A stretch of DNA of 64,000 nt from an uncultured Weeksellaceae bacterium (GCA_964460845.1 CAYWRZ010000005.1:95644-159643); one strand, 5' to 3'. Counted from the first letter of the stretch, positions 27,988 to 41,354 are shown. The notes: a model not told the origin generated them from the sequence alone. Made by a program: numbers and translations.

Positions 27988-28020
27988 GAAAATCCTGACG
28001 CAAAGCGTCGGGATTTTTTG
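27988..28020. terminator. hairpin terminator after tRNA-Ser (bidirectional geometry)
   Basis: AAAATCCTGACGC-AAA-GCGTCGGGATTTTTT. A 10-11 bp stem with an A-run before it and a T-run after it. Confidence 0.6.
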
Positions 28021-28053
28021 TTTTAGACAGGTGCCAAACTTGTTTGTGCGCAT

Positions 28054-28148
28054 GTAGAAAACAAAAAATCCACCTTTGGAAGCGCCAAAGAGGATTTCCT
28101 GAGTTGAAGCCTTCCCCTCAGGGATCAGCCGCCGGAGGCGGGTAATCC
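28054..28148 (-). ncRNA. candidate small RNA, copy A (about 90 nt, own intrinsic terminator)
   Basis: Minus strand reads GGATTACCCGCCTCCGGCGGCTGATCCCTGAGGGGAAGGCTTCAACTCAGGAAATCC, then hairpin TCTTTGG-CGCTT-CCAAAGG, then GGATTTTTTGTTTT. Paralogous to copy B. Confidence 0.4.
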
Positions 28149-28199
28149 ATCCTTTTTCTAACGTTTCTTTTCGAGTGCTCCCAAATTGTGTGTACACCG

Positions 28200-28290
28200 G
28201 CAGAAAAACAAAAAACACGCTGCGCAGCAGCGGGATTTTGAAGATGCAGCCCTCCCCTTTTAGGGATCACCCGCCAAAGGCGCGTAATCC
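28200..28290 (-). ncRNA. candidate small RNA, copy B (about 90 nt, own intrinsic terminator)
   Basis: Minus strand reads GGATTACGCGCCTTTGGCGGGTGATCCCTAAAAGGGGAGGGCTGCATCTTCAAAATCC, then hairpin CGCTGC-TGC-GCAGCG, then TGTTTTTTGTTTTT. Confidence 0.4.
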
Positions 28291-28462
28291 TTGTATATTT
28301 TTTATCTTAATTAAAAACAGGAACCGCTATCCGATATTTACATTATTTTAGTATTTTCACTATACAAACCTGACTGGTATTCAGGGTGTTTTTGTAGTTT
28401 TATTTATATAAGCAGTTGGTGGCAATACTGAGAAAACCCTTCCAAATTTATAAGACTATTAC

Positions 28463-28939
28463 ATGTATAAATTACTGAAAAAACTTCTTCAATTAAAGGT
28501 TGAACGCTTAACAGCACCACCTACTGACACATCTGTTGACCGGTTATTTAGTTGCATTAAGTCCATTGAAGAAGGCTCAAACAAAATTTCAACCTGGTCT
28601 TTAAGCACTATAGGTGGTTCTTTACTGGCAATTTTGAGTAACGAATATTCACATCCATTGACACCGAAATTGAAACTGATTTACTTACTATTTGTTTTAG
28701 GTTGGGGGTTTATTGGCATTTCATTTTATAATGGTAAAAACATCACAAGCCGGTCAATTGCTTCGGAATTAAATAAAAATGATACGGAATTATTGAAAAC
28801 AATTTTTACTGACTGCAACACATTTTATTCAAGACAACTGCGTTTTTTTAATTTAGCACTTTTGATTTTTGGTATTTGGCTATTACTGTTTCTTTTGTGG
28901 TGGGTATTTGGTGATTCAATTATTAATATTTGTAAATAA
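28463..28939 (+). CDS. hypothetical membrane protein (3-4 predicted TM segments)
   Basis: 158-aa ORF in about 30% GC DNA. Hydrophobic segments WSLSTIGGSLLAIL, LIYLLFVLGWGFIGISF, LALLIFGIWLLLFLLWWVF. Confidence 0.55.
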   Translation: MYKLLKKLLQLKVERLTAPPTDTSVDRLFSCIKSIEEGSNKISTWSLSTIGGSLLAILSNEYSHPLTPKLKLIYLLFVLGWGFIGISFYNGKNITSRSIASELNKNDTELLKTIFTDCNTFYSRQLRFFNLALLIFGIWLLLFLLWWVFGDSIINICK

Positions 28940-28950
28940 AATAACTTATT

Positions 28951-29325
28951 ATGAGTGACTGCGACTACAACAAAGACTGTTCAAAAGTGCCTATCAGAGG
29001 AAAATGTGTATCATTCTGTTTAGAGCGTATATTACGAACTGCAACAATAGAAGAAAAGCAATTAATTCTTGGACTTGATAGAACTTTGTCTTTAGCAATC
29101 CATAATGCTTATAATGAACTTAAAGACATAAATTCGTTTGAAGATTTAAGTACACAATTAACACAAGAACAAGGGCAAACCCTGTTGACTAAGTTTAAGC
29201 AAATAAATCAATATCAATTAAATTATTTTAGAAAAAATAGACAAAAAAGAGACTTTATTATCAATAAAATCAAAAACTTAGGATTAGACTCTGATGAGGA
29301 GTCTCTTTTATCAAACAACCATTAG
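28951..29325 (+). CDS. hypothetical small protein with N-terminal Cys cluster
   Basis: Starts 11 nt after the previous stop. C-x5-C-x9-C-x3-C at the N-terminus (CDYNKDCSKVPIRGKCVSFC). No family recognised. Confidence 0.5.
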   Translation: MSDCDYNKDCSKVPIRGKCVSFCLERILRTATIEEKQLILGLDRTLSLAIHNAYNELKDINSFEDLSTQLTQEQGQTLLTKFKQINQYQLNYFRKNRQKRDFIINKIKNLGLDSDEESLLSNNH

Positions 29326-29735
29326 ACAAAATACTACCACAACAAGGTATTGCCCAAAGCGGGGCTGAACAGCTTCGTATCAACAAAAGTGCAGAATTCA
29401 ACTTCTGTTCTTCTGGAACTCAATGACAGAAAAAGAAATCACCTGGATAGCAGAATGAAAGAGGCACGAACCGCTAACACGGTTTTTGTACCTGCCCGTA
29501 GGCATATAGATTAGACATAATTACCTGAAAAAAAATTATGATTGCCGATAATAATATTCAATAATTATTGATAAATTCTACTCCGGTCAGCGATAGCTGA
29601 TCGGAACCACCCGAACCTACCGAAAGCAGCCAAGCAAAAAAAACCAATCCATTACCCCCACCAAAAAAGCAAACGAAAAATTACCAGGCACAGCATTACC
29701 TTTGTTGTCGTGAATACACAATCCAAAAGATCGCT

Positions 29736-30377
29736 ATGAAACGCTCTTCAAAAGCAGCCCACATTCTGAATCAACTCAATAGCCAAACCAAGCTGGGTGA
29801 CTTACGGAAAATTGCGAAGGATATCAAAAAAGACCACGAATTAGCGATAGAATTATGGTCAAGCGGGAATTTTTTACCCAGGCAACTCGCCATCCTGATT
29901 ATGGACAACAAGCTTCTTTCGCAGGATTTGATTAATCAGCTTGACAAGGACATGCAGACTCACCCGTTGAACGAGCGAAACCAACTCATAGATTGGCTGA
30001 TGGCTAACCAGCTTGCGAAAGACAAGAAAACCATTACACTGATGGAATCGTGGAAAAACAGCCCTTCTCCACTTCAAAGACGAATTTTTTGGTATTACCA
30101 GGCTCGTTTGCGTTGGCTGGGAAAAACACCTCCTCCCAACACGGAAGAATTGTTGGCGGCCATCGAAACACAACTAGAAAGCGAAGAACCCGAAGTACAA
30201 TGGGCCATGAATTTCACCGCAGGATGGATTGGCGTTTTTGATAAAAAGTATCGGACACGCTGTATCGAAGTGGGGCAGAAAACGGGACTTTACAAAGGCA
30301 AAATGGTCTCAAAAGGCTGTACTCCCGATTATTTACCGGAGTTCATTGCGATAGAAAGTCAGAAAAGAAATTTATAA
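29736..30377 (+). CDS. DNA alkylation repair protein (AlkD-like HEAT-repeat family)
   Basis: 213 aa. LRKIAKDIKKDHELAIELWSSGNFLPRQLAILIMD and later W-rich helical repeats resemble the DNA-alkylation-repair family. Recognition by eye only. Confidence 0.6.
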   Translation: MKRSSKAAHILNQLNSQTKLGDLRKIAKDIKKDHELAIELWSSGNFLPRQLAILIMDNKLLSQDLINQLDKDMQTHPLNERNQLIDWLMANQLAKDKKTITLMESWKNSPSPLQRRIFWYYQARLRWLGKTPPPNTEELLAAIETQLESEEPEVQWAMNFTAGWIGVFDKKYRTRCIEVGQKTGLYKGKMVSKGCTPDYLPEFIAIESQKRNL

Positions 30378-30381
30378 AAGT

Positions 30382-30836
30382 GTGCGCAGGGCCACAGAAA
30401 AAAGCAAAGACGAAATAAACAGACAAGGTGCTACACCTTTTGCGCAAACGTATTTTCACGGCACAAAAGCCGACTTAAAAATAGGCGACCGGATTGAAGC
30501 TGGCTTCCACTCCAACTATGGACAAAAAACACACACAAAATATAGTTTCCTGTCGGCCACATTAGACGCTGCCATTTGGGGGCTAAACTTGCCTTGTGTG
30601 AAGGCCGGGAAAGAATTTATTTGGTAGAGCCTACAGTACCAATTGAAGATGATCCGGACCCGACAGACAAAAAGTTTCCCGGCAATCCGACAAAATCGTA
30701 TCGTTCGACAGCGTCGTTCAGAGTGGTGGGAGAAGTAACTGTGTGGCAAGCATACCCGGCAGCACAAGTGCAAGCCATGAAAGCACACCTCGAAAAACTT
30801 AAAGCACAAGGAATTAACTCCTTAAATGAGGAATAA
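30382..30836 (+). pseudogene. arr: NAD(+)--rifampin ADP-ribosyltransferase (Arr), split by a 1-nt frameshift in a G5 run
   Basis: The two ORFs (30382-30627, 30576-30836) together read YFHGTKADLKIGD...YSFLSATLDAAIWG / AKLALCEGRERIYLVEPTVPIEDDPDPTDKKFPGNPTKSYRS, which is colinear with Arr. The frames join at TGGGGG (30577-30582). Confidence 0.8.
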
Positions 30837-31001: not shown

Positions 31002-32543
31002 ATGAAACGCCCTTTTATACTGATTTTCGGCGTATTGTGCATAGAGGCTTTCGGTCAATATCCTGTAAAGCCGCAACCTGCTACCCCTCAGGCTTCCACG
31101 TTTAGCCCTATGGGCGAAAACGGGCATTACCGTTTTACCCTTACACCCGCACGGCCTGTTCAGCCTTCTACCTCCTATGTTCCGCCGATGGGCATGACAG
31201 GAGATGCAATCAAAGAGCAGGTTAATAGAAACGCATCTCATGGCGGAATACCCATACTTCATCCTAATGCCACGCAAAAAGAAAGACAACAAGCCTCAGA
31301 AGCATACATCCGTCAGCGCATGGCCAATGACCCGATGTATCAGTATCCGAATACAGCCAACGGTTTTACTCAAACTCATTTATCCCCAAGTCAGCAGCAG
31401 ATAATAAACCTGTTGAACGAGGTTCATGCTTCGGAATCTCCCCGCCGTAGTTCAGCTTCCTATTACCAGTCTTCGGAATTTACAGCTCTTACGAAGCCTT
31501 ATACCGATGCGTTACAGGAACTTAAAATGCAGCTTGCAGGACTTCGCCCGCTTTCGGTAGCCGATGCCTATTTCGCAGTCGAAAATGCCTTTGGCAATGC
31601 CTATTTGTCGAAAAATGAGTACGACCGTACAATAGAGGAATCGGTTGTATTTATCCGGCGGTGGCTTTCACAGCATGGATATAATCTTCAGGACAACGAA
31701 GCCCTGCACATAGGCTTGCAGCGTTTCCTGAGCGATACGCTCACTATCCGGTTGCCCGCCTCGGCAGACCGACCCGGAGCTTCCACGCTTAAAACGCACT
31801 TGCCTTTCTTTTACGATTATGAAGACTATACTGGCACGAAAGATTACCGCAACTATTTTCTGACCAAATGCCTGGCTACCGGCAGCGGACAATGCAATAG
31901 CCTTCCCACCGTGTACAATGCCCTTGCCCAAAAACTGGGAGCCGTATCGTACCTTTCTTTTGCGCCCCAACATTCCCTTATTAAATACCCCGGCAAAGAC
32001 GGAAGACTGCACAACTACGAAGCTACTACCAACTGGAAAATAAGCGATAAATGGTATAGGGATAATCTTTTTGTCAAGCAGGAAGCCCTGCGTAATCACA
32101 TGTACCTCGATACGCTCAACTATACGCAGATGGTAGCTAATGCTGTTATCGACCTTGCCACAGGGTATATCCAAAAGCACGGCGCAGCCGATGGGCGTTT
32201 TGTGGACGAGTGCCTGAATCTTGCCGCACCTTATTTCCCCAAACGAAATAACATTTACCTGTATTTTGTGCGCAGCCTAAAGCTGGCTTATCTACTGGAG
32301 AGAGAACTCCATACAAATGGTATAGAAGATGTTAAAGACATTGAACGTTTTCCGCATCTGAAAAGTCTCTATGAAGCCTTGGAAGAAAACGAAAGGCTTA
32401 TTACCGGAAAGGGGTATCAGGGAATGCCCCCGGAGCTGTATAATCAAATGATGGAAGAGCACCAGTACAAGAACCGCCAGCAGTCGGCAAAGTCCATCAA
32501 CGGCAAGCAAAAAAGAAACCTGTTTATTACCCAACCCCGATAA
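31002..32543 (+). CDS. secreted transglutaminase-like (Cys-His-Asn/Asp core) protein, paralog of the N-terminal region of the next gene
   Basis: Signal peptide MKRPFILIFGVLCIEAFGQ. Core GSGQCNSLPTVYNALAQKLGAVSYLSFAPQHSLIKYPGKDGRLHNYE aligns with GQGNCFAMVSLFRILSERLGSDAFISTVPGHIYIRHADKNGIVHNVE in 32553-34748. Confidence 0.6.
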   Translation: MKRPFILIFGVLCIEAFGQYPVKPQPATPQASTFSPMGENGHYRFTLTPARPVQPSTSYVPPMGMTGDAIKEQVNRNASHGGIPILHPNATQKERQQASEAYIRQRMANDPMYQYPNTANGFTQTHLSPSQQQIINLLNEVHASESPRRSSASYYQSSEFTALTKPYTDALQELKMQLAGLRPLSVADAYFAVENAFGNAYLSKNEYDRTIEESVVFIRRWLSQHGYNLQDNEALHIGLQRFLSDTLTIRLPASADRPGASTLKTHLPFFYDYEDYTGTKDYRNYFLTKCLATGSGQCNSLPTVYNALAQKLGAVSYLSFAPQHSLIKYPGKDGRLHNYEATTNWKISDKWYRDNLFVKQEALRNHMYLDTLNYTQMVANAVIDLATGYIQKHGAADGRFVDECLNLAAPYFPKRNNIYLYFVRSLKLAYLLERELHTNGIEDVKDIERFPHLKSLYEALEENERLITGKGYQGMPPELYNQMMEEHQYKNRQQSAKSINGKQKRNLFITQPR

Positions 32544-32552
32544 TACTTCCCT

Positions 32553-34748
32553 ATGAAAACCGCAGGAATTTTAATGATTATGGTCGTAGTGTGTGGTTTC
32601 ACTCCGGTAAAGGCATCGCAAGACAGCACCGCAAAGGCAGCCTTTTATACCGCCCAACAAGCCCTTGTAGAAATGCTCGAAGGGAATAAGCCATTAAGCT
32701 ATGAAAAGGCTATTTACCATATCGAAAACGCATGGTACGGAGGCGGTATAAGCGAAGCGACCTTTACCCGTATGCTTGACTTTCACACAGAAAACGTCCG
32801 GCAGCTCATCGCTACCCGTTATGAAAAACAAAATTTCACCACCACCTTGAGAGCTACGGCAGCACAGCAACAAGAGCGTTACGAAAAGGCATTAGCTAAC
32901 TGGGCAATTTACACCTACCTGACCGATACCATCTTGTTTGTAAGCCCCGAAGGGTTAATGTTGCACCTGCCTTATACCTACTCCTACCGCGACCCGCTGG
33001 CTACTGCCGACTGGACAAATACACAAGTGATAAACTTGTTGTTAAAAGGACAGGGTAACTGCTTTGCGATGGTATCGCTGTTCAGGATTCTTTCTGAGCG
33101 ATTGGGTTCGGATGCGTTTATCTCGACCGTACCGGGGCATATCTATATCCGTCATGCCGATAAAAACGGTATTGTGCACAATGTAGAACCCTCCACCCGC
33201 TCTTTTCCCGGAACCGGAACCTTACAGGTCTTGACATACAGCAGCGATGAGGCGGTAAGAAGCGGAATTTCTATGCGCAATTTAGATACCCGACAGTCCG
33301 TAGCCCTTTGTTTGGTATATTTAGCGAAAGGTTTTGAGTACAAATTCGGAATCCGTACCGATGATTTTCTGCTTGAATGTGCCGACATTGCCTTACAGCA
33401 CGATAGCCTGAACCTGAACGCCCTGCTATTGAAAGCCGGAATACTGGAAGAACGGTTATTAGTCAGAGGTTCAAGCGTGGAGGACTTACAGCGGTACACC
33501 GACTTTAACGAATACGAAAGCCTGATACGTGAGCTACACCGCCTCCATTACCGTGAAATGCCTTTGGAAATGAAGAACCTGATTATGGCCATGCACAAAA
33601 AGGAACGGTTTCCCGGCATCGTGGAAGACAAGACACCACAGCCTTCTAAACATTTAGGAATAACCCAAGACCGCTACGTTACTCTTTCGGGCGGACTGTT
33701 TGAGGAGTTTGATTACGATAAGCCCGTAGAGCAATACGGCCGTACCCTGTTCGACAGCGAAACCAAAAAGATAAGCGGATTTCTGACCGAAACACCCCAG
33801 CTTTACAACTACTACCAGTTCGACCCGGTCGTCTTCGCCTGGTCGATTGACCCGCTGGCAGCGAAGTACCCCTATATGTCGCCGTATGCCGCCTTTGCAG
33901 GGAATCCGATTTATTACAGAGACCCCGATGGAGCTGATGTGGAAGGATTTATGGCTTTACTTAAAGCCTCCATATATGGATCAGCAATTCAAACATTAAG
34001 TGATGCAAGCGAAACTTTCAATGCTACTATTAATCACTTTGTGTCCGTAAATGGTGGAGAGAATCCCAACTCTGCTAAAACCGATGGAAAGTGGAGTAAC
34101 GTTAACATTAGTTTTGGAACATTTAACGAAACTCCCGGTTCTGACGGAAATGAATTATTGGGTCGTAATATTTTTCAAATAAAAATAAACGGGAAGTGGC
34201 AAGATATTACGTCCGTAGATGATAATGTTCTTGATGGACTGGAATCCTCAAGCGGTAATCTTAGAATTTTAATAGAATTTAATACTGCAACAGGTAGTGA
34301 TTATTTTAAAAACATAGTGGTCGGTGCACATGAAGTCGGTTTACACCTTATTGCATTAGGTCAACTGGCAAACGATGTCTTAGCAGGTGCTAAAAGTTTA
34401 CGAAACGTAAAAGATGAAATATATGCTGGAGGGGACGAAAGTAAACAAATGGCTACAAAACATCATATAGGTGTTGCAAATGGAAGCCCGGTAGCTACGG
34501 TATATAATCAAATTTTAAACGAAGTAGAAAATCATTTAAGAGCAAATCGAAGAACTTTAAATGCTAAAGGAGAAAGCTATGCAAATATCAAATTATTAGG
34601 CAACCAAATGGATAACGACCCCGGTGAGGAGTTTCAAAATTCAAAAGGAAACTATACCGCAAGGCAAGGAGTGAGAGTGGCAAGGATGGCTTCTCAAAAT
34701 CATTATAGAAGTGAAACGGGAAAATTCAAACAAATCCAAGAGAAATAA
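32553..34748 (+). CDS. polymorphic-toxin-type protein: signal peptide, transglutaminase-like scaffold, RHS-core-type DPDG junction, variable C-terminal toxin domain
   Basis: Signal peptide. Cys170/His196 TGase-like core. Junction YMSPYAAFAGNPIYYRDPDG at aa 441-460 (DPDG = nt 33921-33932). A 271-aa AT-rich C-terminal domain containing AHEVGLH. Confidence 0.7.
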   Translation: MKTAGILMIMVVVCGFTPVKASQDSTAKAAFYTAQQALVEMLEGNKPLSYEKAIYHIENAWYGGGISEATFTRMLDFHTENVRQLIATRYEKQNFTTTLRATAAQQQERYEKALANWAIYTYLTDTILFVSPEGLMLHLPYTYSYRDPLATADWTNTQVINLLLKGQGNCFAMVSLFRILSERLGSDAFISTVPGHIYIRHADKNGIVHNVEPSTRSFPGTGTLQVLTYSSDEAVRSGISMRNLDTRQSVALCLVYLAKGFEYKFGIRTDDFLLECADIALQHDSLNLNALLLKAGILEERLLVRGSSVEDLQRYTDFNEYESLIRELHRLHYREMPLEMKNLIMAMHKKERFPGIVEDKTPQPSKHLGITQDRYVTLSGGLFEEFDYDKPVEQYGRTLFDSETKKISGFLTETPQLYNYYQFDPVVFAWSIDPLAAKYPYMSPYAAFAGNPIYYRDPDGADVEGFMALLKASIYGSAIQTLSDASETFNATINHFVSVNGGENPNSAKTDGKWSNVNISFGTFNETPGSDGNELLGRNIFQIKINGKWQDITSVDDNVLDGLESSSGNLRILIEFNTATGSDYFKNIVVGAHEVGLHLIALGQLANDVLAGAKSLRNVKDEIYAGGDESKQMATKHHIGVANGSPVATVYNQILNEVENHLRANRRTLNAKGESYANIKLLGNQMDNDPGEEFQNSKGNYTARQGVRVARMASQNHYRSETGKFKQIQEK

Positions 34749-34752
34749 AATC

Positions 34753-35535
34753 ATGATTAGAATTAAAAGTTTTTATTTTCTCCTTTTAGCAATAACAGCA
34801 GTTACTCAAAGCTGCATTAGCTCTGATAAAGTTTATTATGAATACGAATACGCAATAACATACACAAAAAAAAACTACATCTCCTATACTGAGGAAAAAA
34901 TAATTGAGAAAACACACAGCGCCTTTATGGGTAAAGACACTCTGTTTTTCCTTCACGCACAAGACACAGCAAACTTTCTGATACAAGGAACTTTAGACAC
35001 AATTACCCAAGAGGTAGTACAATGGGATACCCTTTTTGATATAATACCTGAAAAAGCAAACGGCCCTTACTTACTTAACAGAGAAAAAGGAATCATCGAA
35101 TATTCTGACAGAAACCATCAAAAAAGAACGTTAAAGTGGTTCGATTACAAAGATACCGTAGATTATTATTCTATCGAAACATGTAATCTTCTGAAAGAGA
35201 ATTCTCTATGCCGGGTTTTTTATAGTGGAAAAGAAGGGATTTGTATCGTAAATAACAAAGAATACAAATGTGATATATTCATTGCATTTTGCCCACAAAG
35301 AGGGCTACACGGAAAAAACACCTTTTCATTTATCTTTTTGGACAAAAAAACAAAAATGATTTTAAGAAAAGATTTTTATGTAATGGAGGACTTATCGCTG
35401 AGATTTCACAATATGAATGAGGGAATATTTGTTCCGGACATTTCCAATTATACAGGCTCAACTTATGTAACGAACATTAAGAAAAGTGCCTTAACACCCT
35501 CAAAAGTAAAATACTGGGATGAATGCTATCCTTAG
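34753..35535 (+). CDS. putative cognate immunity lipoprotein
   Basis: The ATG lies 4 nt after the toxin stop. Signal/lipobox-like LLLAITAVTQSC. Paralogous to 35772-36596. The immunity role is inferred from position only. Confidence 0.55.
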   Translation: MIRIKSFYFLLLAITAVTQSCISSDKVYYEYEYAITYTKKNYISYTEEKIIEKTHSAFMGKDTLFFLHAQDTANFLIQGTLDTITQEVVQWDTLFDIIPEKANGPYLLNREKGIIEYSDRNHQKRTLKWFDYKDTVDYYSIETCNLLKENSLCRVFYSGKEGICIVNNKEYKCDIFIAFCPQRGLHGKNTFSFIFLDKKTKMILRKDFYVMEDLSLRFHNMNEGIFVPDISNYTGSTYVTNIKKSALTPSKVKYWDECYP

Positions 35536-35755
35536 ATGCAGGGGTACTCTCACACGTTTTCACAACACAAACCATGATTTCGGCGCTCATGGCACATTAA
35601 AACATTTTCCTGACCAAACCGGAAATACACGGATGGAAAAAGCAAAATCTAAAGGTCTGCATACTGCAAGACAGGGACTAAGAGGAGCAAGAATCGCAGA
35701 ACAAGTTGCTCATAAATTGAAAACCGGGAGTTTTACACCAGTAGATGCAAAATAA
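35519..35755 (+). pseudogene. orphan toxin C-terminal tip remnant
   Basis: Its C-terminal half SKGLHTARQGLRGARIAEQVAHKLKTGSF aligns with the last ~45 aa of the 32553-34748 protein (SKGNYTARQGVRVARMASQNHYRSETGKF). There is no upstream toxin body. Confidence 0.5.
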
Positions 35756-35771
35756 TTGATTAGATTTTAAC

Positions 35772-36596
35772 ATGAAGCACAAAACGCTTTTTATACTTAT
35801 TTCTATTGTTATTGCTTCATCATGCAGCGAGAATAAAAATTTATTCTATTATGAGTATAATTACATTACGGAATTTAGAAAACTCTCTATTCAATTCCCT
35901 GAAAATATTGATATGGATTCAGTTACAGTAGATGATGCAATAGTCAGTATTGAAACCATTATTAATCCTTCCCGTTCCGTTTTATATAAAAATAAAGACT
36001 CTATATTTATTATTAATTATAGTGATACAGTAAACTATTTAATAGCCTATACGATAGATTCCGTAACCAACGAAATAATTGAAGCAGATACTTCATTCAA
36101 TATTCATGTTGGATACTCAAAAGGGCCTTTTAAATACAATCCTTCAAATTCAACAATACAGCAAGATTCGTTAACCTTTCAATGGTTAAGTAAAACAGAT
36201 ACCCTTGAATATAAAGGACTATACGGCATTAGCGCATTTTGCAAAAAAAATCCGCACTCCCAACAAGGAAGGATATTTTTTTCCGGTCGCCGGGAAATAT
36301 TCAGAATGGGAAATGAAATTTTCAACTGTGATATTTATATTGGTTACTTCCCTCAGAAAGGAATGCACTCTGAGGCTTATTTTGAACTTTTTTTTATTGA
36401 GGTAAATTCGGGAATTATCCTTAAAAGTGAAACGTATAAAGTAAACTCGCAAAAATATACGTATAGTTTTGAGGGAATGGAATACGAGAGCTACAAAACC
36501 AGTGAGGAAAATTTCATTGGAAGAACTTACCTTAAAAGCATTACCCCAAGCGACCTCACGCCTGCAAAAGTTAGTAACTGGGAAAATTGTCCTTAA
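35772..36596 (+). CDS. second putative immunity lipoprotein (paralog of 34753-35535)
   Basis: Lipobox IVIASSC. Shared blocks YYEY.Y, CDI.I...PQ.G.H and LTP.KV..W..C with the first copy. Confidence 0.55.
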   Translation: MKHKTLFILISIVIASSCSENKNLFYYEYNYITEFRKLSIQFPENIDMDSVTVDDAIVSIETIINPSRSVLYKNKDSIFIINYSDTVNYLIAYTIDSVTNEIIEADTSFNIHVGYSKGPFKYNPSNSTIQQDSLTFQWLSKTDTLEYKGLYGISAFCKKNPHSQQGRIFFSGRREIFRMGNEIFNCDIYIGYFPQKGMHSEAYFELFFIEVNSGIILKSETYKVNSQKYTYSFEGMEYESYKTSEENFIGRTYLKSITPSDLTPAKVSNWENCP

Positions 36597-36710
36597 CGCT
36601 GTTATCCGGTTGTATGAGGTTCAGAATGTGTAATATGCTAAATATTTTTTTGTTTAAAACCAGTTAAATTTTTAGGAGGGGTTACAGTTACACTGGTCTT
36701 CTGTCTTTCG

Positions 36711-36926
36711 TCATCCTACTTGGTTTTCTGAGTATTGTCCTTTAATGTGAGCCAAGAAGAACTTTCCTACTGAATCACTTCCAATAAATTCATAATAGGT
36801 GCTTTCAGGAACGTCATAATACTGCCATATTGCACCATTTTTTTTGAATTCAATTTCAAGAGTCAAAGTATCAGAATCAAATCCAATACTTGCTATCATT
36901 GATGATTCTACATATTGTCTGTCCAT
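36711..36926 (-). CDS. stand-alone KTSC-domain protein, third gene of the SIR2-HerA operon
   Basis: 71 aa. SSMIASIGFDSDTLTLEIEFKKNGAIWQYYDVPESTYYEFIGSDSVGKFFLAHIKGQY matches the KTSC domain pattern along its full length. The start is 2 nt after the herA-like stop. Confidence 0.85.
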   Translation of the reverse strand: MDRQYVESSMIASIGFDSDTLTLEIEFKKNGAIWQYYDVPESTYYEFIGSDSVGKFFLAHIKGQYSENQVG

Positions 36927-36928
36927 AT

Positions 36929-38698
36929 TTAAAATTTTTGTTGTCTTATTCTCGTAACAACGGTTTTATAATTTTCTTCATCAGTTGGGTGTTCGTGTTG
37001 CCATTTTTCAACAAGTTTTGGGTCATCACTTGTTGGTCTTGGAACATTAAGTTTAAGTCTTACTCTTGATGGAATTTTAATTGCTTCTCCAACAATTATG
37101 GCTTCACCTGTCCGTAATGACGGAAGTAGGTCAATTAAACTGTTTAAGTTGTCGGGGGCTGAGGATTTAACTATTGATTGGTCGCCTGAATTAGTTAGTC
37201 GTAATGCAATAAAAGTTCCCACTTGAGCTAAAATAGTTTCTGAAATTTCTGATGGTCTTTGGGAAATAACTAAAGCTCCTAAACCAAACTTTCTTCCTTC
37301 TTTGAATACCCTTTCTACCGCTGCCTTTGAATAACTGTTATTGTCATTTTTGTTAAGATAGTTGTGTGCTTCTTCATAAGCCAAAAGGAGTGGTCTATTC
37401 TTACCAGTATATGGTTCATTCCGACCCCAAAACATACTATCATAAACAAATCTTGTTATCAATCCAACTGTAATATCAAGGACTTCAAAAGGAACTCCGC
37501 TTAAATCTAAGATTGAGAGTTTACTGTCGCTACCAATCCATTCATTTAAAAGATGATGTAAATCTTTATCTGAATCGGCATCTTTGAAGTCTCCTGGATT
37601 AAAAAGGAAATCAAATCTTGAATCTTTGAGCCTTGATAAAATTTTCTTCTCGTATGAGTAAAATTCTTGGTGCTGTGATTTATATGGTGGTTTGGTGTTA
37701 TCCGTTGATAGATGTGATTTAAATTTTGCTCCAATTAAATTTTCTGCCTCTCCATCATCTACTTTGATTGCAGTAGATAAAATTTGTTCATCCTTTTTAG
37801 TTGTATTAAAACTTGCATTTAACCACCAATTCATTTCATACCATAGTTTTCTCACGCTAAAAGGAATTGGTGAATCACTTGTAACAAAATTTGGATTAAC
37901 TATACCCGCTTTTAGATTGCAATTTTCCTTTTTGAGATTTGTAACTAATTCCCGAAATAAACGATAATCTGGTTTTTGGTCATCTGTTGGTTTTGCTCCT
38001 ACTAAAAAGTATGCAAGTTCGTCAAAGGACATCAACCAAAATGGAATGAATAATGGATTGGCAGGGTCATTAATTTTTAGAACTTTGGCTTCAGGGAAAG
38101 CTGAAGAATATTCTCCGTGAGGGTCAACAAGAATAATTCTTGAACCTTGATAACCACTCAAAATTGCTTTGAGAATACTAACTGTTGTATTAGACTTACC
38201 ACTACCTGTTGAACCCAAAATTGCACAATGTCTCAAAACCAATCTGTGCAAATCTGCATAAACGCTTAAATTTTCAGATGAGGAGTGTTTGCCAATTTCA
38301 ATAGAGCCTGCATCTTTTTTACCATAAATATCAAACAGGTCTTTTTCAATAACTATGTGAACTTCATCATTGATTGTTGGATAAGTCCCAATACCTTTTT
38401 CAAAATCATCTTCTCCAACTTTTTCGCCAACAAGTTGAACAGTTAAAAACCTTGAGCCAAAACTATATTTTAGAAGCGTTTCATCTGTTTTGCTTGGCGT
38501 ATTACTTACTGATGAAACAATACCGTAAATTGTAATATTGCCAATCGGTATTTTTACGAATGTTCCGATTTGTCCAATTTTATAAAGCCGACCATTGATA
38601 ATAGGAGCTGCTGATGGTATTTCGTTTGAAACTTCCACTTCAACTGTCCCAGAGTCAACCCGTATAATATGACCTAAATATGTTATCTCGGTTTTCAT
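36929..38698 (-). CDS. herA: HerA-like ATPase (DUF87/FtsK-HerA superfamily) of a SIR2-HerA defence system
   Basis: N-terminal HAS-barrel-like region, Walker A GSTGSGKSN, Walker B LLLAYEEAHNYL, LVISQRPSE motif. ATGA overlap with the upstream SIR2 gene. Confidence 0.9.
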   Translation of the reverse strand: MKTEITYLGHIIRVDSGTVEVEVSNEIPSAAPIINGRLYKIGQIGTFVKIPIGNITIYGIVSSVSNTPSKTDETLLKYSFGSRFLTVQLVGEKVGEDDFEKGIGTYPTINDEVHIVIEKDLFDIYGKKDAGSIEIGKHSSSENLSVYADLHRLVLRHCAILGSTGSGKSNTTVSILKAILSGYQGSRIILVDPHGEYSSAFPEAKVLKINDPANPLFIPFWLMSFDELAYFLVGAKPTDDQKPDYRLFRELVTNLKKENCNLKAGIVNPNFVTSDSPIPFSVRKLWYEMNWWLNASFNTTKKDEQILSTAIKVDDGEAENLIGAKFKSHLSTDNTKPPYKSQHQEFYSYEKKILSRLKDSRFDFLFNPGDFKDADSDKDLHHLLNEWIGSDSKLSILDLSGVPFEVLDITVGLITRFVYDSMFWGRNEPYTGKNRPLLLAYEEAHNYLNKNDNNSYSKAAVERVFKEGRKFGLGALVISQRPSEISETILAQVGTFIALRLTNSGDQSIVKSSAPDNLNSLIDLLPSLRTGEAIIVGEAIKIPSRVRLKLNVPRPTSDDPKLVEKWQHEHPTDEENYKTVVTRIRQQKF

Positions 38699-39888
38699 TT
38701 AGTAAGGTTTTCAATTGCTTCTCTTTTTCCTGAATTGGAAATTAAAAAGTTTACAAGTTCATTGAAGTCTCCAAGTTTGAATCTATTTGTTGTAGAATCC
38801 CAATAGGTTTCTGATTTTTCATTTGGCTTTAAATCATCCGCTAAATAATGCCACTCTCCCAGATTGCCGTTTACAATAGCCTTTGTTGGTCCAAAGACTA
38901 TGAGATTCATATATGAAGATGTTAGTTTGTGTAAATTCTCTACTTCAGCATCTTGGAAAAAGAAAACCAATGCAGTTAGTCTATTGTTTTGTCGTAAACA
39001 GTTGAATATTATTTCATTGATATGTTGGTCGGAGAATGAATATCCTGAAAAAATGAAAAGAAGTTCTCCACTGAGCAAATAATTTTTCAGTCTGTCGAAA
39101 TATGCTATGAAGGGTTGTTTCTTTGATGAATCGTATTTTTCTTTTGAAGGATAAATTACTAATTCATTCTTTTCATCTTCTATTTTTTCAATTTTTCCTT
39201 GTCGTATGATTTTTTGTGATTTTGTTGCTGGGTCAATTTTCCAAAACCAACTTAATGAGCCGTGAATTTTCCAAAGTCTAATCCAATTTTGAGTCAGGTC
39301 ATTTTTGGAGACAAATTGGTCAATACTTTCCTGCCAAAAGAATGGCTCAAATGAGCCAACAAATCCGTCAAAGTAGGGGATTTGGCTAGCTTCTAAAGAT
39401 TTTTCAATTATTAGGTCATAATTTGTTGTGAATATTTCTTTTGAAAAATCTCTATTTAGCATACTTAGCCAAGCAAAGAATTTTTTTGTTTGACTGATAT
39501 CAGCTAATGATTCTTTTGCGGCAATGATTTGATAAATTATTTTACATATTTCTATATCTAAGGTTTTTGCAGATTCTCCTGTGATTCCTTGATAACTTTT
39601 AGTATTGACTTCTCCAGTAATCTCTCTAATTCTTCTAATGTGATTTAGGATGTCTTCAATATTGACATTTCGATCCGTTATGATGGTTTTTAAGTCTTCC
39701 TTAATAGCTATAAAGTTGGCTTTATTCTCGTCTTTTAATTCCTCTTCAATCCCTATTGTCAATTGTTCAACATTCGGAATTTTTAATGCACAAGAAGTTC
39801 CTGCACCAAAAAAGAATCCTATGTTTTTTGAATAGGATAAATGTGTTTTCAGCTCTCTTACTTCTCTTATTAAGTTTATTTTTTCCAT
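38695..39888 (-). CDS. SIR2-family (SIR2_2-type) NAD-binding/NADase protein of a SIR2-HerA defence system
   Basis: FFFGAGTSCALKIP (GAGxS), TTNYDLIIE, KIHGS (catalytic His context), about 400 aa. Confidence 0.88.
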   Translation of the reverse strand: MEKINLIREVRELKTHLSYSKNIGFFFGAGTSCALKIPNVEQLTIGIEEELKDENKANFIAIKEDLKTIITDRNVNIEDILNHIRRIREITGEVNTKSYQGITGESAKTLDIEICKIIYQIIAAKESLADISQTKKFFAWLSMLNRDFSKEIFTTNYDLIIEKSLEASQIPYFDGFVGSFEPFFWQESIDQFVSKNDLTQNWIRLWKIHGSLSWFWKIDPATKSQKIIRQGKIEKIEDEKNELVIYPSKEKYDSSKKQPFIAYFDRLKNYLLSGELLFIFSGYSFSDQHINEIIFNCLRQNNRLTALVFFFQDAEVENLHKLTSSYMNLIVFGPTKAIVNGNLGEWHYLADDLKPNEKSETYWDSTTNRFKLGDFNELVNFLISNSGKREAIENLTK

Positions 39889-40007
39889 CTCATTCGATTT
39901 GTCAATCTGGTCTCAGGTCGTTCTTTAGGCTTGCACCCAATATTTTTTAGACTTAGCGTTCGGGAAGATTTCGGAGCACAAAGCTTCAATTTATACTAAT
40001 GACATTA

Positions 40008-40041
40008 GAAACAAAAAGCTCCGTCCCTAAAGCTTTCGGGA
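40008..40041 (-). terminator. possible intrinsic terminator of the 40088-40960 gene
   Basis: Minus strand shows near-palindrome TCCCGAAAGCTTTAGGGA followed by CGGAGCTTTTTGTTT. The U-run is offset by 5 nt, so confidence is moderate to low. Confidence 0.35.
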
Positions 40042-40087
40042 TTGTACGTTAGCCCGCATGACGCAAAACCCGTGTTATAAGCTGCCA

Positions 40088-40960
40088 TTACAAGAATCTT
40101 TTTGCTAATTGTTTTAGAATTCTGATTCCATGAATAGTAAAAGTCCCATCTTCATTTATTATTCTGAGATTAAGCATTCCTATAAGTTCTTGTTTGCTTA
40201 ATTCTTCTAAATTAATTCTGAATTTTCTACTTAAAACTGAATTCGGGTATTTCATTATTGCTTCAAAAGGCATATTCTGCTTTCTGATCAAATCAATAAG
40301 TCGCCTTATAATGCTTTCTGGAATTTCTTCTAAAATAATGTCGTCATTTTCACTTTCATGGTATAAACGATTTCTTAAAAAATTTAATTCTCGATTTTGT
40401 TTCGAAATCTCTACTTCTTTTTCCTTTAACTGTTTTCGTATTTGCTCTTTTTCATGTTGTTCCAATTGAGCCTTTTCAATCAATGAGTTTAAAATTTCGT
40501 TTCTTTCTTGAATTTCTTGCTTTAACTTTATTTTTTCCTTTTCTATTTCTTCTTTTGTCTCTTTAATGTTTTTGTCATTGAACCCATTATCGAACTTATT
40601 AACTAAACCACTATATCCTTCGTCCAAATGCCTCAGTCTTTCTCCAAAACCAGCTTCTATTCTTCCAAGAATTTCTGATATTTCTTTAGTAAATTTATAT
40701 GTGTTATCATAAAACAAGTTACTTGTATCGGTAGCTTTAAAATAAAATGCTACTGATAATGCAATTGCAAAAAGTGAAAGTAAAAGAGCAAGTAGTGCAT
40801 TGAAATCGAACTTTGAAAAATCAAATGTCCAATCTGATACTGCAAGCTTGTATATTATCAAAGCAACTATTAGAATTCCTGAAATAAGTTTAAACCAGTC
40901 AAATAATGTTGCTTTTGACGATTCCTGCTTTGATTTTTTATTTTTTTCTTCTTTTTCCAT
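40088..40960 (-). CDS. hypothetical protein: K-rich N-terminus, 2 TM helices, long coiled coil, about 90-aa C-terminal domain
   Basis: 290 aa in about 28% GC DNA. TM segments LISGILIVALIIYKLAV and LLALLLSLFAIALSVAFYF. E/K heptad region aa 130-200. Confidence 0.6.
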   Translation of the reverse strand: MEKEEKNKKSKQESSKATLFDWFKLISGILIVALIIYKLAVSDWTFDFSKFDFNALLALLLSLFAIALSVAFYFKATDTSNLFYDNTYKFTKEISEILGRIEAGFGERLRHLDEGYSGLVNKFDNGFNDKNIKETKEEIEKEKIKLKQEIQERNEILNSLIEKAQLEQHEKEQIRKQLKEKEVEISKQNRELNFLRNRLYHESENDDIILEEIPESIIRRLIDLIRKQNMPFEAIMKYPNSVLSRKFRINLEELSKQELIGMLNLRIINEDGTFTIHGIRILKQLAKRFL

Positions 40961-41354
40961 GTCTGAGGTCTAATATGGTTGCTTATAACTCTTAAATATG
41001 CGCAAAATGATTGCGTATATCCTTTCAATTTCAGAAAATAAATGCAATAAAGATACTTCACACAAGAATAATTACTTTTTTATTACGTAAAAAATCGAAA
41101 GAACTATTTTATCAAAGGAGCTTGGTTTTTCACTATTTCGCCTCACACCTCCCCTTTCACAACCTAAATATCTGAAAAATATTCATTTACAAGCCATTCC
41201 ACCTCTTCAAAACCCTCCCAGGAAGGGTTAGAAACCTGTCTCCTACTCTCCCACAGCAACCGAGCACCTACCCCATGCCTCAACATATTTCCGGAATATT
41301 TACGTAATTTTAGGGTCTCTATTTCAACTGTTCTACAGACCAAACGACAACGCT

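Follow-up and report, generated by a model that had tools for sequence, protein, structure and literature searches.

The window (the whole stretch of DNA that was analysed, 64,000 nucleotides long) contains two adjacent open reading frames, A and B, on the same strand with 9 nt between them, followed by two candidate immunity genes and a toxin remnant (Table 1). Both reading frames are present where the first-pass annotation had placed them, and the motifs quoted there are found in A (GSGQC298NSL, APQH324SLIKY and LHN338YE) as well as in B (GQGNC170FAM, VPGH196IYIRH and VHN210VE). The colinear similarity, put at about 330 aa, is slightly longer by BLASTP, which aligns 374 residues at 25% identity (E = 3e-25), and the two family profiles align with an hhalign probability of 100%. 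As described, B alone runs on into ...YMSPYAAFAGNPIYYRDPDG (ending at G460) and then into exactly 271 residues (aa 461-731). Both A and B start with a hydrophobic stretch that would fit a Sec signal peptide, as judged from sequence reading and a crude hydropathy check, and the same type of test finds a hydrophobic N-terminal segment in 73/85 B orthologues. Shortly before the locus there is an arr gene with a frameshift.

Table 1. Features of the A-B locus, with nucleotide positions in the window
Feature	Coordinates	Strand	Description
Gene A	31002..32543	+	ORF, 513 aa; paralogue of the B body with no toxin domain; predicted to be exported
A N-terminus			Signal-peptide-like; Q19 comes after the hydrophobic stretch (sequence reading)
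A variable region			About aa 19-155; P/Q-rich
A core			aa 157-513; transglutaminase-like core and helical domain
A putative catalytic triad	31893..32015	+	C298 (31893-31895), H324 (31971-31973), N338 (32013-32015)
Gene B	32553..34748	+	ORF, 731 aa
B N-terminus	32553..32618	+	Signal-peptide-like, MKTAGILMIMVVVCGFTPVKAS, then Q (sequence reading)
B body	32619..33677	+	aa 23-375; transglutaminase-like core and alpha-helical repeat domain
B triad positions	33060-33062, 33138-33140, 33180-33182	+	Cys170, His196 and Asn210, respectively
B connector	33678..33818	+	aa 376-422; three short beta-strands, lower model confidence
B junction, RHS-core-derived	33819..33932	+	aa 423-460; FDPVVFAWSID433PLAAKYPYMSPYAAFAGNPIYYRD457PDG
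B variable C-terminal domain	33933..34748	+	aa 461-731, 271 aa; predicted toxin
Candidate immunity protein 1	34753..35535	+	260 aa; lipoprotein-type N-terminus (LLLAITAVTQSC); starts 4 nt past the B stop
Remnant of displaced toxin 3' end	35519..35755	+	Similar to the C-terminal end of the B tail over its last 56 codons (35585-35752)
Candidate immunity protein 2	35772..36596	+	274 aa; lipoprotein-type paralogue (SIVIASSC)

The body and its putative triad

The residues C170, H196 and N210 of B are invariant columns across 48 tail-distinct relatives and are still invariant when A is added. Therefore, the match between the A and B motifs goes far beyond chance. Among the A orthologues, C298 and H324 are each kept in 72/72, N338 in 65/72 and E340 in 71/72. 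The Pfam model Transglut_core2 (PF13369) is matched by 44/59 A orthologues at E<0.01 (best E = 1.9e-8). The A protein of the window matches it at E = 4.6e-4 with 20.1 bits, under the cut-off of 23.5, and B has no direct match to PF13369 and reaches no Pfam threshold.

The AF2 model of B (pLDDT 85.4, pTM 0.85) is mostly helical with a small sheet. Cys170 is placed at the N-terminus of helix 170-184, with His196 and Asn210 on strands 196-202 and 208-212, so that both the order of the triad and its secondary-structure placement are of the canonical transglutaminase type. In the connector, the model has strands at 392-395, 398-401 and 406-410, and the B family consensus holds a conserved EQYGRT.FD segment in this region. 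The best PDB match of the model is menin (E = 2e-3, TM about 0.3, 340-410 aligned columns), in which a transglutaminase-like domain is combined with TPR-like repeats; solved structures support the body fold weakly, with E values at or above 2e-3. Altogether, the Pfam matches of the A orthologues, the profile alignment of A with B, the invariant triad and the predicted position of the cysteine at a helix start support a transglutaminase-like fold for both bodies, as the first-pass annotation had proposed, with a putative catalytic triad.

The junction and the tails behind it

We compared the junction of B (aa 423-460) with genuine RHS-core ends and obtained an hhalign probability of 95.6% (E = 1.1e-8); at the level of profiles, the segment is a homologue of the RHS-core end. 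Against the model of the RHS repeat-associated core (TIGR03696), B scores 13.6 bits where the cut-off is 32.5, covering model positions 35-75 only, and 24/48 relatives match at E<0.1 (best 1.7e-4), all below threshold. No RHS_repeat match, and hence no YD/RHS repeat array, was found in B or the 48 relatives, and the AF2 model of B is mostly helical. The suggestion that an RHS-derived junction is grafted onto a non-RHS body is upheld by these results.

The junction motif is kept in all 120 proteins examined (B and 119 relatives, the best 120 of 294 matches). Across the 48 tail-distinct relatives, its invariant residues are D433, P434, S443, P444, Y445, D457 and G460. It contains two Asp-Pro motifs 19 residues apart, D433PLAA-(19 aa)-D457PDGA, with both Asp residues invariant, and has a variant form of the two DPxGL-type motifs that stand directly ahead of variable toxins, an aspartyl autoprotease signature for which cleavage in B is putative. 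In Rhs proteins, cleavage takes place after two DPLGL motifs with a spacing of 17 residues, the catalytic Asp being in the second (PMC8636562). The Rhs aspartyl site acts inside a beta-cocoon; B has no such cocoon.

Conservation across the B relatives stops at G460. Among the best 120 of the 294 matches, the bodies are 41-59% identical, and the 119 relatives that share the body and the junction carry 48 unrelated tail clusters. Profile-level kinship was detected in only 2/325 tail-cluster pairs. The exchangeable tails are about 220-270 aa long, and some contain the Pfam toxin domains Ntox10 (in one relative), Ntox44, CDI_toxin_EC869_like, Peptidase_M91 and Tox-MPTase3. The first-pass annotation had read B as a polymorphic toxin, to be abandoned if the body always carried the same C-terminus. 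Since the tails vary in this way, the polymorphism stands. The proteins themselves are of uniform length (660-735 aa), with hundreds of intact relatives and, in some cases, several intact copies within one genome.

Evidence of exchange is also found within the window. The GC content falls from 0.481 in the B body to 0.365 in the tail, 0.328 in candidate immunity gene 1 and 0.321 in candidate immunity gene 2, and the break lies at the junction, at G460. The remnant, which sits between the two immunity paralogues, is 37% identical over 57 aa to residues 215-271 of the B tail (E = 3e-8). In the relatives, orphan fragments consisting of the 3' end of a body and a tail occur at five loci (L008, L025, L049, L066 and L082). 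These orphan cassettes are placed as starting in the connector; the fragments of L025, L049, L066 and L082 start at body positions 301-327. Together, the 48 tails, the drop in GC at G460, the remnant and the orphan cassettes show, by sequence comparison, that recombination at the junction exchanges cassettes of predicted toxin and immunity genes.

No Pfam, PDB or fold match was obtained for the tail of B in the window (aa 461-731). It belongs to a rare family: a search of 1.84 billion representatives gave only five distant relatives, each sitting behind an RHS-type junction, and the family also occurs on RHS orphan modules adjoining integrases. The tail signature is an HExxxH...H arrangement (H593-E594-x3-H598, 34329-34346; H638, 34464-34466), whose H, E, H and H are invariant across the tail family. 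The canonical zincin motif is HExxH, and the HExxxH of the tail is one residue longer. In the weak AF2 model of the tail (pLDDT 62), the motif lies on a long helix (124-150) after a four-stranded sheet. HExxxH is also present in three other tail clusters, and HExxH or HExxxH occurs in 47/119 tails (about 40%), compared with 0.75 expected. Given the HExxxH motif, this family-wide excess and immunity candidates that look exported, the window tail probably works in the cell envelope as a metal-dependent hydrolase or peptidase. Some tails in the family are nuclease-type; these would need entry to the target cytoplasm, and no route is evident.

The two candidate immunity proteins share 29% identity (E = 7e-38) and both have a lipobox; candidate 1 has no family match in Pfam or NCBIfam, and candidate 2 is presumed to be the cognate of the displaced toxin remnant. 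Homology between the immunity candidates of the window and those of the RHS-borne tail relatives is not demonstrable (BLAST E = 1e-3, hhalign probability 0.2%), and the genes downstream of these RHS-borne relatives also start in a signal-peptide-like manner. A hydrophobic N-terminus is found in 53/64 ORFs downstream of relatives versus 19/40 background genes (Fisher p = 2e-4), signal peptides being judged by eye and by a crude hydropathy rule with a background rate of 48%. By this measure, the downstream genes in the family mostly look exported.

The A-B pair, a proposed mechanism and its alternatives

In 70/78 loci, the gene immediately upstream of B is of the A type, mostly with a gap of -4 to +38 nt between the A stop and the B start, and B stands without A in a few loci (L069, L075 and L079). 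No other conserved neighbour was found across the 78 loci. The toxin-less paralog that the first-pass annotation had noted ahead of B is, judging from this gene order, a conserved partner of B, a finding that is new in this analysis. A-A and B-B distances are correlated (Mantel r = 0.88, p = 0.001), which could simply mirror shared genome phylogeny. Profile searches detected no T6SS domains in A, B or the 48 relatives, and the NCBIfam and Pfam models of the T9SS C-terminal sorting domain (type A or B) match none of these proteins either, in line with the earlier statement that no such signal is visible. The C-terminus of B, where a T9SS domain would sit, is the variable toxin.

With a probability of roughly 70%, we explain the locus as a whole as the A-B-immunity cassette of a large, unannotated Bacteroidota polymorphic toxin family, with the following proposed mechanism. 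B would consist, in order, of a signal peptide, a transglutaminase-like core with a helical domain, a connector, the 38-residue RHS-derived junction (DPLA...DPDG) and an exchangeable toxin, and A would be a co-transcribed paralogue of the body alone, with its own signal peptide, inherited together with B. Judging from their N-termini, both would reach the periplasm via Sec. A may then be a dedicated partner that helps B to reach or leave the cell surface, a role suggested by the Neisseria MafA/MafB model and by A being the only conserved neighbour. The toxin would be cut just after DPDG, either by the RHS-type Asp pair or by the Cys-His-Asn site of B or A. Once freed, the window tail, as a divergent HExxxH...H metal-dependent hydrolase, would act in the envelope or periplasm of competitors, and the two lipoprotein paralogues would neutralise it in the producer. 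Toxin/immunity cassettes are swapped by recombination at the junction, as the sequence comparison shows.

The predicted metallopeptidase character of many tails is also compatible with a different role, in which the B proteins are secreted degradative or host-directed enzymes rather than interbacterial toxins, the body is a pro-domain or secretion chaperone, and the downstream proteins are periplasmic protease inhibitors. For some secreted metalloproteases, periplasmic inhibitors guard the producer against premature activity, and the roughly 40% of tails with metallopeptidase motifs, the exported appearance of most downstream proteins and the lack of a linked delivery apparatus would all fit. 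However, the 48 unrelated tails include the nuclease-type CDI_toxin_EC869_like, Ntox10 and Ntox44, orphan cassettes and toxin remnants exist, immunity genes are duplicated, and the window tail family is found on RHS orphan modules beside integrases. Diverse toxin tails, orphan cassettes or remnants, duplicated immunity and the sharing of RHS modules are hallmarks of polymorphic toxin-immunity systems, and we regard the enzyme role as quite improbable. A decaying locus, with B a degenerate, non-functional Rhs protein stripped of its YD-repeat shell, could account for the RHS-derived junction, the frameshifted arr gene and the toxin remnant downstream, but is contradicted by family-wide conservation and was rejected as scarcely credible. 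Hundreds of intact relatives of 660-735 aa keep invariant body residues at 45-59% identity, several intact copies can occur per genome, the tails are diverse yet uninterrupted, and the A-B arrangement is conserved, all of which argues for purifying selection rather than decay.

Within the polymorphic toxin reading, a further alternative concerns the route of export. B may use an export pathway general to Bacteroidota, either T9SS, with a signal in the body that has escaped recognition, or passive release in outer-membrane vesicles; A would then be a regulator, decoy or trans-acting releasing protease rather than a secretion partner. The Cys-His-Asn triad is kept in both A and B, which suggests enzymatic rather than structural roles for the two proteins; for A, the prediction is an alpha-helical protein built on a transglutaminase core rather than a beta-barrel; and MafB has been found inside outer-membrane vesicles without MafA (PMC7738311). 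We nevertheless consider such a route unlikely, given that the T9SS C-terminal domain models match 0/48 relatives, in which the C-terminus is the variable toxin, and that A is tightly coupled to B and is its only conserved neighbour.

Comparison with known systems

The Maf system of Neisseria (MafA-MafB-MafI; PMC7738311, PMC4287609) is similar in comprising a Sec-exported polymorphic toxin whose N-terminal domain is conserved and whose C-terminus varies, with a conserved gene dedicated to it directly upstream, immunity genes and orphan cassettes downstream, and no linked classical secretion system. MafB needs MafA to pass through the outer membrane (PMC7738311). However, A is a transglutaminase-like paralogue of the toxin body and MafA an outer-membrane protein, and neither DUF1020/MafB-N nor MafA has a Pfam or NCBIfam match in A, B or their relatives. 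The likeness is limited to gene organisation, and any role of A in secretion is proposed purely by analogy with MafA.

With Rhs/YD-repeat toxins, such as the T6SS Rhs1 of Photorhabdus laumondii (PMC8636562), B shares the homologous terminal junction with two Asp-Pro motifs before the toxin, toxin domains (the window tail family stands behind genuine RHS ends) and orphan cassettes. In contrast, B has a putative Sec signal peptide in place of the YD-repeat shell, PAAR, VgrG or DUF6443-type N-terminus, the spacing of its motifs is 19 rather than 17, these read DPLA/DPDG rather than DPLGL, and the TIGR03696 cut-off is never reached. Transglut_core2/menin-type proteins resemble A and B in the PF13369 matches of the A orthologues, the likeness of the B model to menin and the layout of the triad, whereas A and B of the window fall under the Pfam cut-off, are paired as paralogues, are predicted to be exported and toxin-fused, and have a weak likeness to solved structures. 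The TANFOR toxins of Bacteroidetes (Jana, Salomon and Bosis 2020; PMC7073777) are likewise Bacteroidota-specific, with a conserved N-terminal domain and variable C-termini. They are large proteins with an N-terminal TANFOR domain, and transglutaminase is not mentioned in that paper, whereas A and B show only weak transglutaminase and RHS-core matches.

The closest precedent bears on the claim of the first-pass annotation that the architecture cannot be placed in a described class. Zhang, de Souza, Anantharaman, Iyer and Aravind 2012 (Biol Direct 7:18; PMC3482391) had already listed polymorphic toxins that depend on Sec and carry an inactive transglutaminase domain at the N-terminus. This domain has lost one or more triad residues and is "always" followed by an RHS array; their Ntox10 row reads Bacteroidetes, T2SS, "Transglutaminase". 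The claim was therefore overstated. B shares with these toxins a signal peptide, putative in B, with a transglutaminase-superfamily domain directly behind it and variable C-terminal toxins, and Ntox10 is also present in one B relative. B lacks both their triad loss and their RHS arrays: the triad does not vary among the B relatives and varies little in A, and of the RHS core B retains just the final ~38 residues. In addition, a paralogous partner is conserved upstream here, of which the passages of PMC3482391 on these toxins make no mention. In the general sense of Zhang et al. 2012, the family has the conserved N-terminus with variable tails and the orphan cassettes of polymorphic toxins, with candidate immunity genes in a lipoprotein-like ORF of 260 aa 4 nt past B and its paralogue past the remnant. 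Altogether, the locus reads as an exported toxin with a swappable tip, set between a conserved toxin-less sister and candidate immunity genes, in a family that is large, unannotated and found in Bacteroidota.

Genes A and B and their shared body

The two adjacent genes described in the first-pass annotation as a toxin-less paralogue (A) and a toxin protein (B) lie where they were placed, on the same strand and with 9 nt between them (see table). BLASTP bears out the claimed similarity, with 25% identity across 374 residues (E=3e-25), and pairs A 157-513 with B 22-374. Therefore, A corresponds to the body of B (its conserved N-terminal part) but stops ~85 residues before the body ends and lacks the tail; relative to this body it has an extra P/Q-rich N-terminal extension of ~155 residues. 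The hydrophobic N-terminus is present in A too, with a near-invariant Gln directly behind it. The Cys/His/Asn motifs reported for both proteins are found at C298/H324/N338 in A and C170/H196/N210 in B, and B only, not A, runs on to ...SPYAAFAGNPIYYRDPDG (G460) and then 271 more residues.

Features of the window and of related genome loci
Feature	Position	Strand	Product	GC	Remarks
Second low-GC stretch	28000-30400			about 0.37	upstream of A
ORF	28463..28939				small, unannotated; predicted membrane protein
ORF	28951..29325				small, unannotated
ORF	29736..30377				DNA_alkylation repair-like
Rifampin ADP-ribosyltransferase (Arr) gene	30382-30836	+			overlapping ORFs 30382..30627 and 30576..30836; directly upstream of A
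A	31002..32543	+	513 aa	0.475	toxin-less paralogue
B	32553..34748	+	731 aa	0.481 (body)	toxin protein
Junction	B aa 423-460
Tail	33933-34745 (B aa 461-731)	+	271 aa	0.365
Candidate immunity 1	34753..35535		260 aa	0.328	lipobox ORF
Toxin remnant ORF	35519..35755		78 codons
Candidate immunity 2	35772..36596		274 aa	0.321	lipobox ORF
Apparent acquired island	about 34000-41000			about 0.33
SIR2-HerA-type genes	36711-39888	-			KTSC-domain gene, HerA-like DUF87 ATPase, SIR2_2 protein
eCIS_core/DUF4157 gene	42921-45656	-	911 aa
B-type genes, MAG nzgw115	L069:6001-10129; L075:6001-7470; L079:2821-7410				no upstream A-type gene; some B-B tandems
Orphan RHS-end-plus-toxin modules	L083:6787-9640; L084:6783-9631				adjoin phage-type integrase genes

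The body is without a dedicated Pfam or NCBIfam model in A, B, and the relatives scanned, and its profile has no match among PDB sequences. In Pfam, A matches Transglut_core2 (PF13369) just under the cut-off (E=4.6e-4), and B has no direct match to this model; among A orthologues, PF13369 is matched by 44 of 59 at E<0.01 (best 1.9e-8), and hhalign pairs the family profiles of A and B at a probability of 100% (E=1.5e-60, 334 columns). C170, H196, and N210 are invariant across 48 B relatives picked for their differing tails, and they are still invariant when A is included. In 72 A orthologues, the Cys and His are found in 72/72, the Asn in 65/72, and the next Glu in 71/72. The AF2 model of B 1-460, built from 49 sequences, is confident (pLDDT 85.4, pTM 0.85), and in it helix 170-184 opens with Cys170, with His196 and Asn210 on the following two strands. 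A Cys that opens a helix, followed by His and Asn on consecutive strands, is the canonical papain/transglutaminase arrangement. The body is thus predicted to combine a transglutaminase-superfamily domain with a helical domain; the transglutaminase link is clear at the family level.

The junction and its exchangeable tails

Searching with B gave 294 proteins, of which the 120 top-ranked are nearly all 660-735 aa long, with body identities of 41-59%, and have in common the motif YN.Y.FDPVVFAW.IDPLA.KYP..SPY.AF.NNPI...DPDG[RK], directly after which the alignment breaks down. TIGR03696 (Rhs_assc_core) positions 35-75 match B 420-460 at E=0.07 (13.6 bits for the window protein versus a 32.5-bit cut-off), and the same model is found at E<0.1 in 24 of 48 relatives (best 1.7e-4). 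A profile of B 376-460 aligns through its last 38 columns with the ends of genuine RHS-type proteins (probability 95.6%, E=1.1e-8). Two Asp-Pro motifs, 19 residues apart, contain the invariant D433 and D457; in the T6SS protein Rhs1, two DPLGL motifs 17 residues apart precede the cleavage site, the second of them supplying the catalytic aspartate (PMC8636562). By profile and motif, the junction is recognizable as the terminal part of an RHS core. No RHS_repeat match, and hence no YD-repeat array, was found by Pfam in B or the relatives scanned, and the AF2 model, helical overall, shows just three short strands in region 392-410. One could read B as a degenerate Rhs pseudogene; we rejected this reading because the conservation is family-wide.

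The C-terminus is not constant on this body, in line with the polymorphism first proposed. Taking the region after DPDG in the best 120 of the 294 proteins gave 119 tails, which fall into 48 BLAST-unrelated clusters, with a profile-level relation in only 2 of 325 cluster pairs. Domains in these tails include Peptidase_M91, Ntox10, Ntox44, CDI_toxin_EC869_like, Tox-MPTase3, and a HINT-containing variant. A search of the species-genome collection yielded 79 loci, almost all in Bacteroidota, spanning Chitinophagaceae (Taibaiella, Chitinophaga, Flavipsychrobacter), Flavobacteriales, Paludibacteraceae, Cytophagales, and Chryseolinea/Chryseosolibacter, with up to four copies per genome; every member with a source name is annotated as a hypothetical protein.

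Two properties cut across these clusters. The cargo is unusually uniform in size (190-250 aa in 113/119 tails, interquartile range 214-233), which points to a size constraint on the cargo. A hidden shared sub-domain was considered as its source and rejected, with just 8 partial BLAST matches and the 2 related profile pairs. In addition, HExxH or HExxxH occurs in 47/119 tails (18/48 clusters), where shuffling gives an expectation of 0.75 and a maximum of 4. Judged by these motifs, the scaffold is strongly biased to metallopeptidase-type toxins.

The tail in the window is a singleton in the family: hhalign relates it to none of the remaining 47 tail clusters, and it has no match in Pfam, PDB sequences, or PDB folds. 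Only five distant relatives (E=2e-6 to 5e-4) turned up when 1.84 billion representatives were scanned exhaustively with HMMER, and a trimmed-tail profile search found only the retrieved protein P0125. A word-index search that used just the tail gave no hits at all, a weak negative because even the identical full-length protein was missed. A full RHS-type end (...YGARMYDPQ[IV]GRW...SPY.Y..NNPV.F.D.DG) precedes four of the five relatives, and the fifth (P0124) retains just the last part of such a junction; therefore, one toxin domain would serve both scaffolds. Two of these relatives belong to the orphan modules at L083 and L084, each of which is followed by a 205-206-aa protein with a signal-peptide-like start. 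H593, E594, H598, and H638 (B numbering) are invariant in the six sequences, the tail and its five relatives, giving HExxxH...H, a spacing also seen in three other tail clusters, and a weak AF2 model (pLDDT 62) puts the motif on a long helix behind a four-stranded sheet. Given this motif and the excess of HExxH/HExxxH in the family, we take the tail, with low confidence, to be a divergent metal-dependent hydrolase or peptidase.

Partner gene, immunity candidates, and surroundings

For 78 B-type genes, the sequence reaches at least 1.6 kb upstream; an A-type gene, 32-63% identical to A, immediately precedes 70 of them, mostly with -4 to +38 nt separating the A stop from the B start. The remainder comprise second B copies in tandem arrays together with three loci of a single MAG, nzgw115; the B-type genes of this MAG, which are the main exceptions, are listed in the table. 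Toxin-less paralogue A is a conserved partner of B. A-A distances correlate with B-B distances across 61 loci (Mantel r=0.88, p=0.001), a pattern to which shared genome phylogeny would also lead. When all flanking ORFs of the 78 loci were clustered, no conserved third gene, such as a secretion component, was found.

A 260-aa ORF with a lipobox (LLLAITAVTQSC) starts 4 nt past the B stop. It is followed by a short ORF that ends in 57 residues with 37% identity to the extreme end of the B tail (E=3e-8), and then by a lipobox ORF that is a paralogue of the first (29% identity, E=7e-38). The break in GC content coincides with the junction. Most simply, a tail-plus-immunity cassette would have entered by recombination at the junction and displaced an older related tail, leaving behind only that tail's 3' end and immunity gene. 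Related loci (L008, L025, L049, L066, L082) display this process too, with downstream orphan modules that start in the last third of the body and bear a new tail. The window's immunity candidates, compared with genes 3' of the tail's RHS-borne relatives, give a BLAST E=1e-3 and an hhalign probability of 0.2%.

A hydrophobic N-terminal segment is found in 53 of 64 distinct downstream ORFs of relatives versus 19 of 40 ordinary window genes (Fisher p=2e-4), by a rule that is crude and has a high background rate, and 17 of the 64 have a lipobox-like motif. Downstream ORFs thus tend to be exported, as far as such signals predict; the direction is clear and agrees with the metallopeptidase-motif excess. 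At a minority of loci, the downstream genes look cytoplasmic; one of these is L011, where the match ends at body residue 453 and the downstream ORF is without a hydrophobic N-terminus.

Several further features surround the locus. Each ORF of the split Arr gene matches half of PF12120/NF033144, and the same split occurs in two independent assemblies; therefore, it is probably a genuine frameshifted pseudogene. The SIR2-HerA-type genes together make up an anti-phage pair of that type, and since low GC is common to them, the tail, and the immunity genes, these appear to form one acquired island. The eCIS_core/DUF4157 domain of the 911-aa protein is N-terminal (PF13699, E=3e-9); as described by Zhang et al. 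2012 (PMC3482391), proteins with such a metallopeptidase-type N-terminal domain bear variable C-terminal toxins.

A possible export route and its relation to known systems

Comparison of the loci establishes, at the level of sequence, a conserved A-B unit with a conserved body and junction, exchangeable tails, and adjacent candidate immunity proteins that are mostly predicted to be exported; no secretion apparatus is linked to A-B across the loci compared. In the mechanism we propose, A and B would be exported by Sec, and A may help surface exposure or release of B, by analogy with MafA, on which the passage of MafB through the outer membrane depends (PMC7738311). The toxin would then be released past DPDG, through either the RHS-type aspartates or the Cys-His-Asn site, and the window's tail would hit an envelope target, with the lipoproteins blocking its action. 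A and B may constitute a self-contained, hitherto unrecognised Bacteroidota delivery route for polymorphic toxins, in which two transglutaminase-like, putatively catalytically competent Sec-exported paralogues cooperate to carry a ~220-aa cargo across the outer membrane, release occurs at a shell-less RHS-derived junction, the arsenal is specialised in envelope-acting, largely metallopeptidase toxins, and the narrow range of tail sizes reflects the limit of the route. We regard this full reading as tentative, with a probability of 0.3.

Bacteroidota are dominant in soils, waters, and guts, and the interbacterial weapons known in this phylum comprise T6SS effectors, TANFOR toxins, and a small number of secreted proteins. 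Should the model hold, it would provide a new scaffold and partner protein for toxin export without T6SS, T9SS, or T5SS signals, and a test case for an RHS aspartyl junction acting without the RHS shell. It would also yield a catalogue of ~48 or more toxin domains, in which metallopeptidase motifs are over-represented and which come with exported immunity proteins, as well as a cargo-size constraint to explain.

The profile, conservation, and tail-diversity evidence supports interpreting the A-B locus as a polymorphic toxin system with a transglutaminase-like scaffold and an RHS-derived junction, as the first-pass annotation had it, and with a conserved paralogous partner. Later literature, as far as its incomplete coverage extends, gave no description of the family, and the TANFOR class, as described (PMC7073777), is unrelated. 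A close likeness is in Zhang et al. 2012 (PMC3482391), where one N-terminal domain type given for Sec-dependent polymorphic toxins is an 'inactive transglutaminase' and the Ntox10 row reads Bacteroidetes, T2SS, transglutaminase. As described there, these domains lie directly behind the signal peptide, are without catalytic residues, and are always followed by RHS arrays, and a peptide-binding, surface-anchoring role is proposed for them. Relative to that type as so described, the A-B family is set apart by an invariant triad, the lack of an RHS array, and a paralogous partner.
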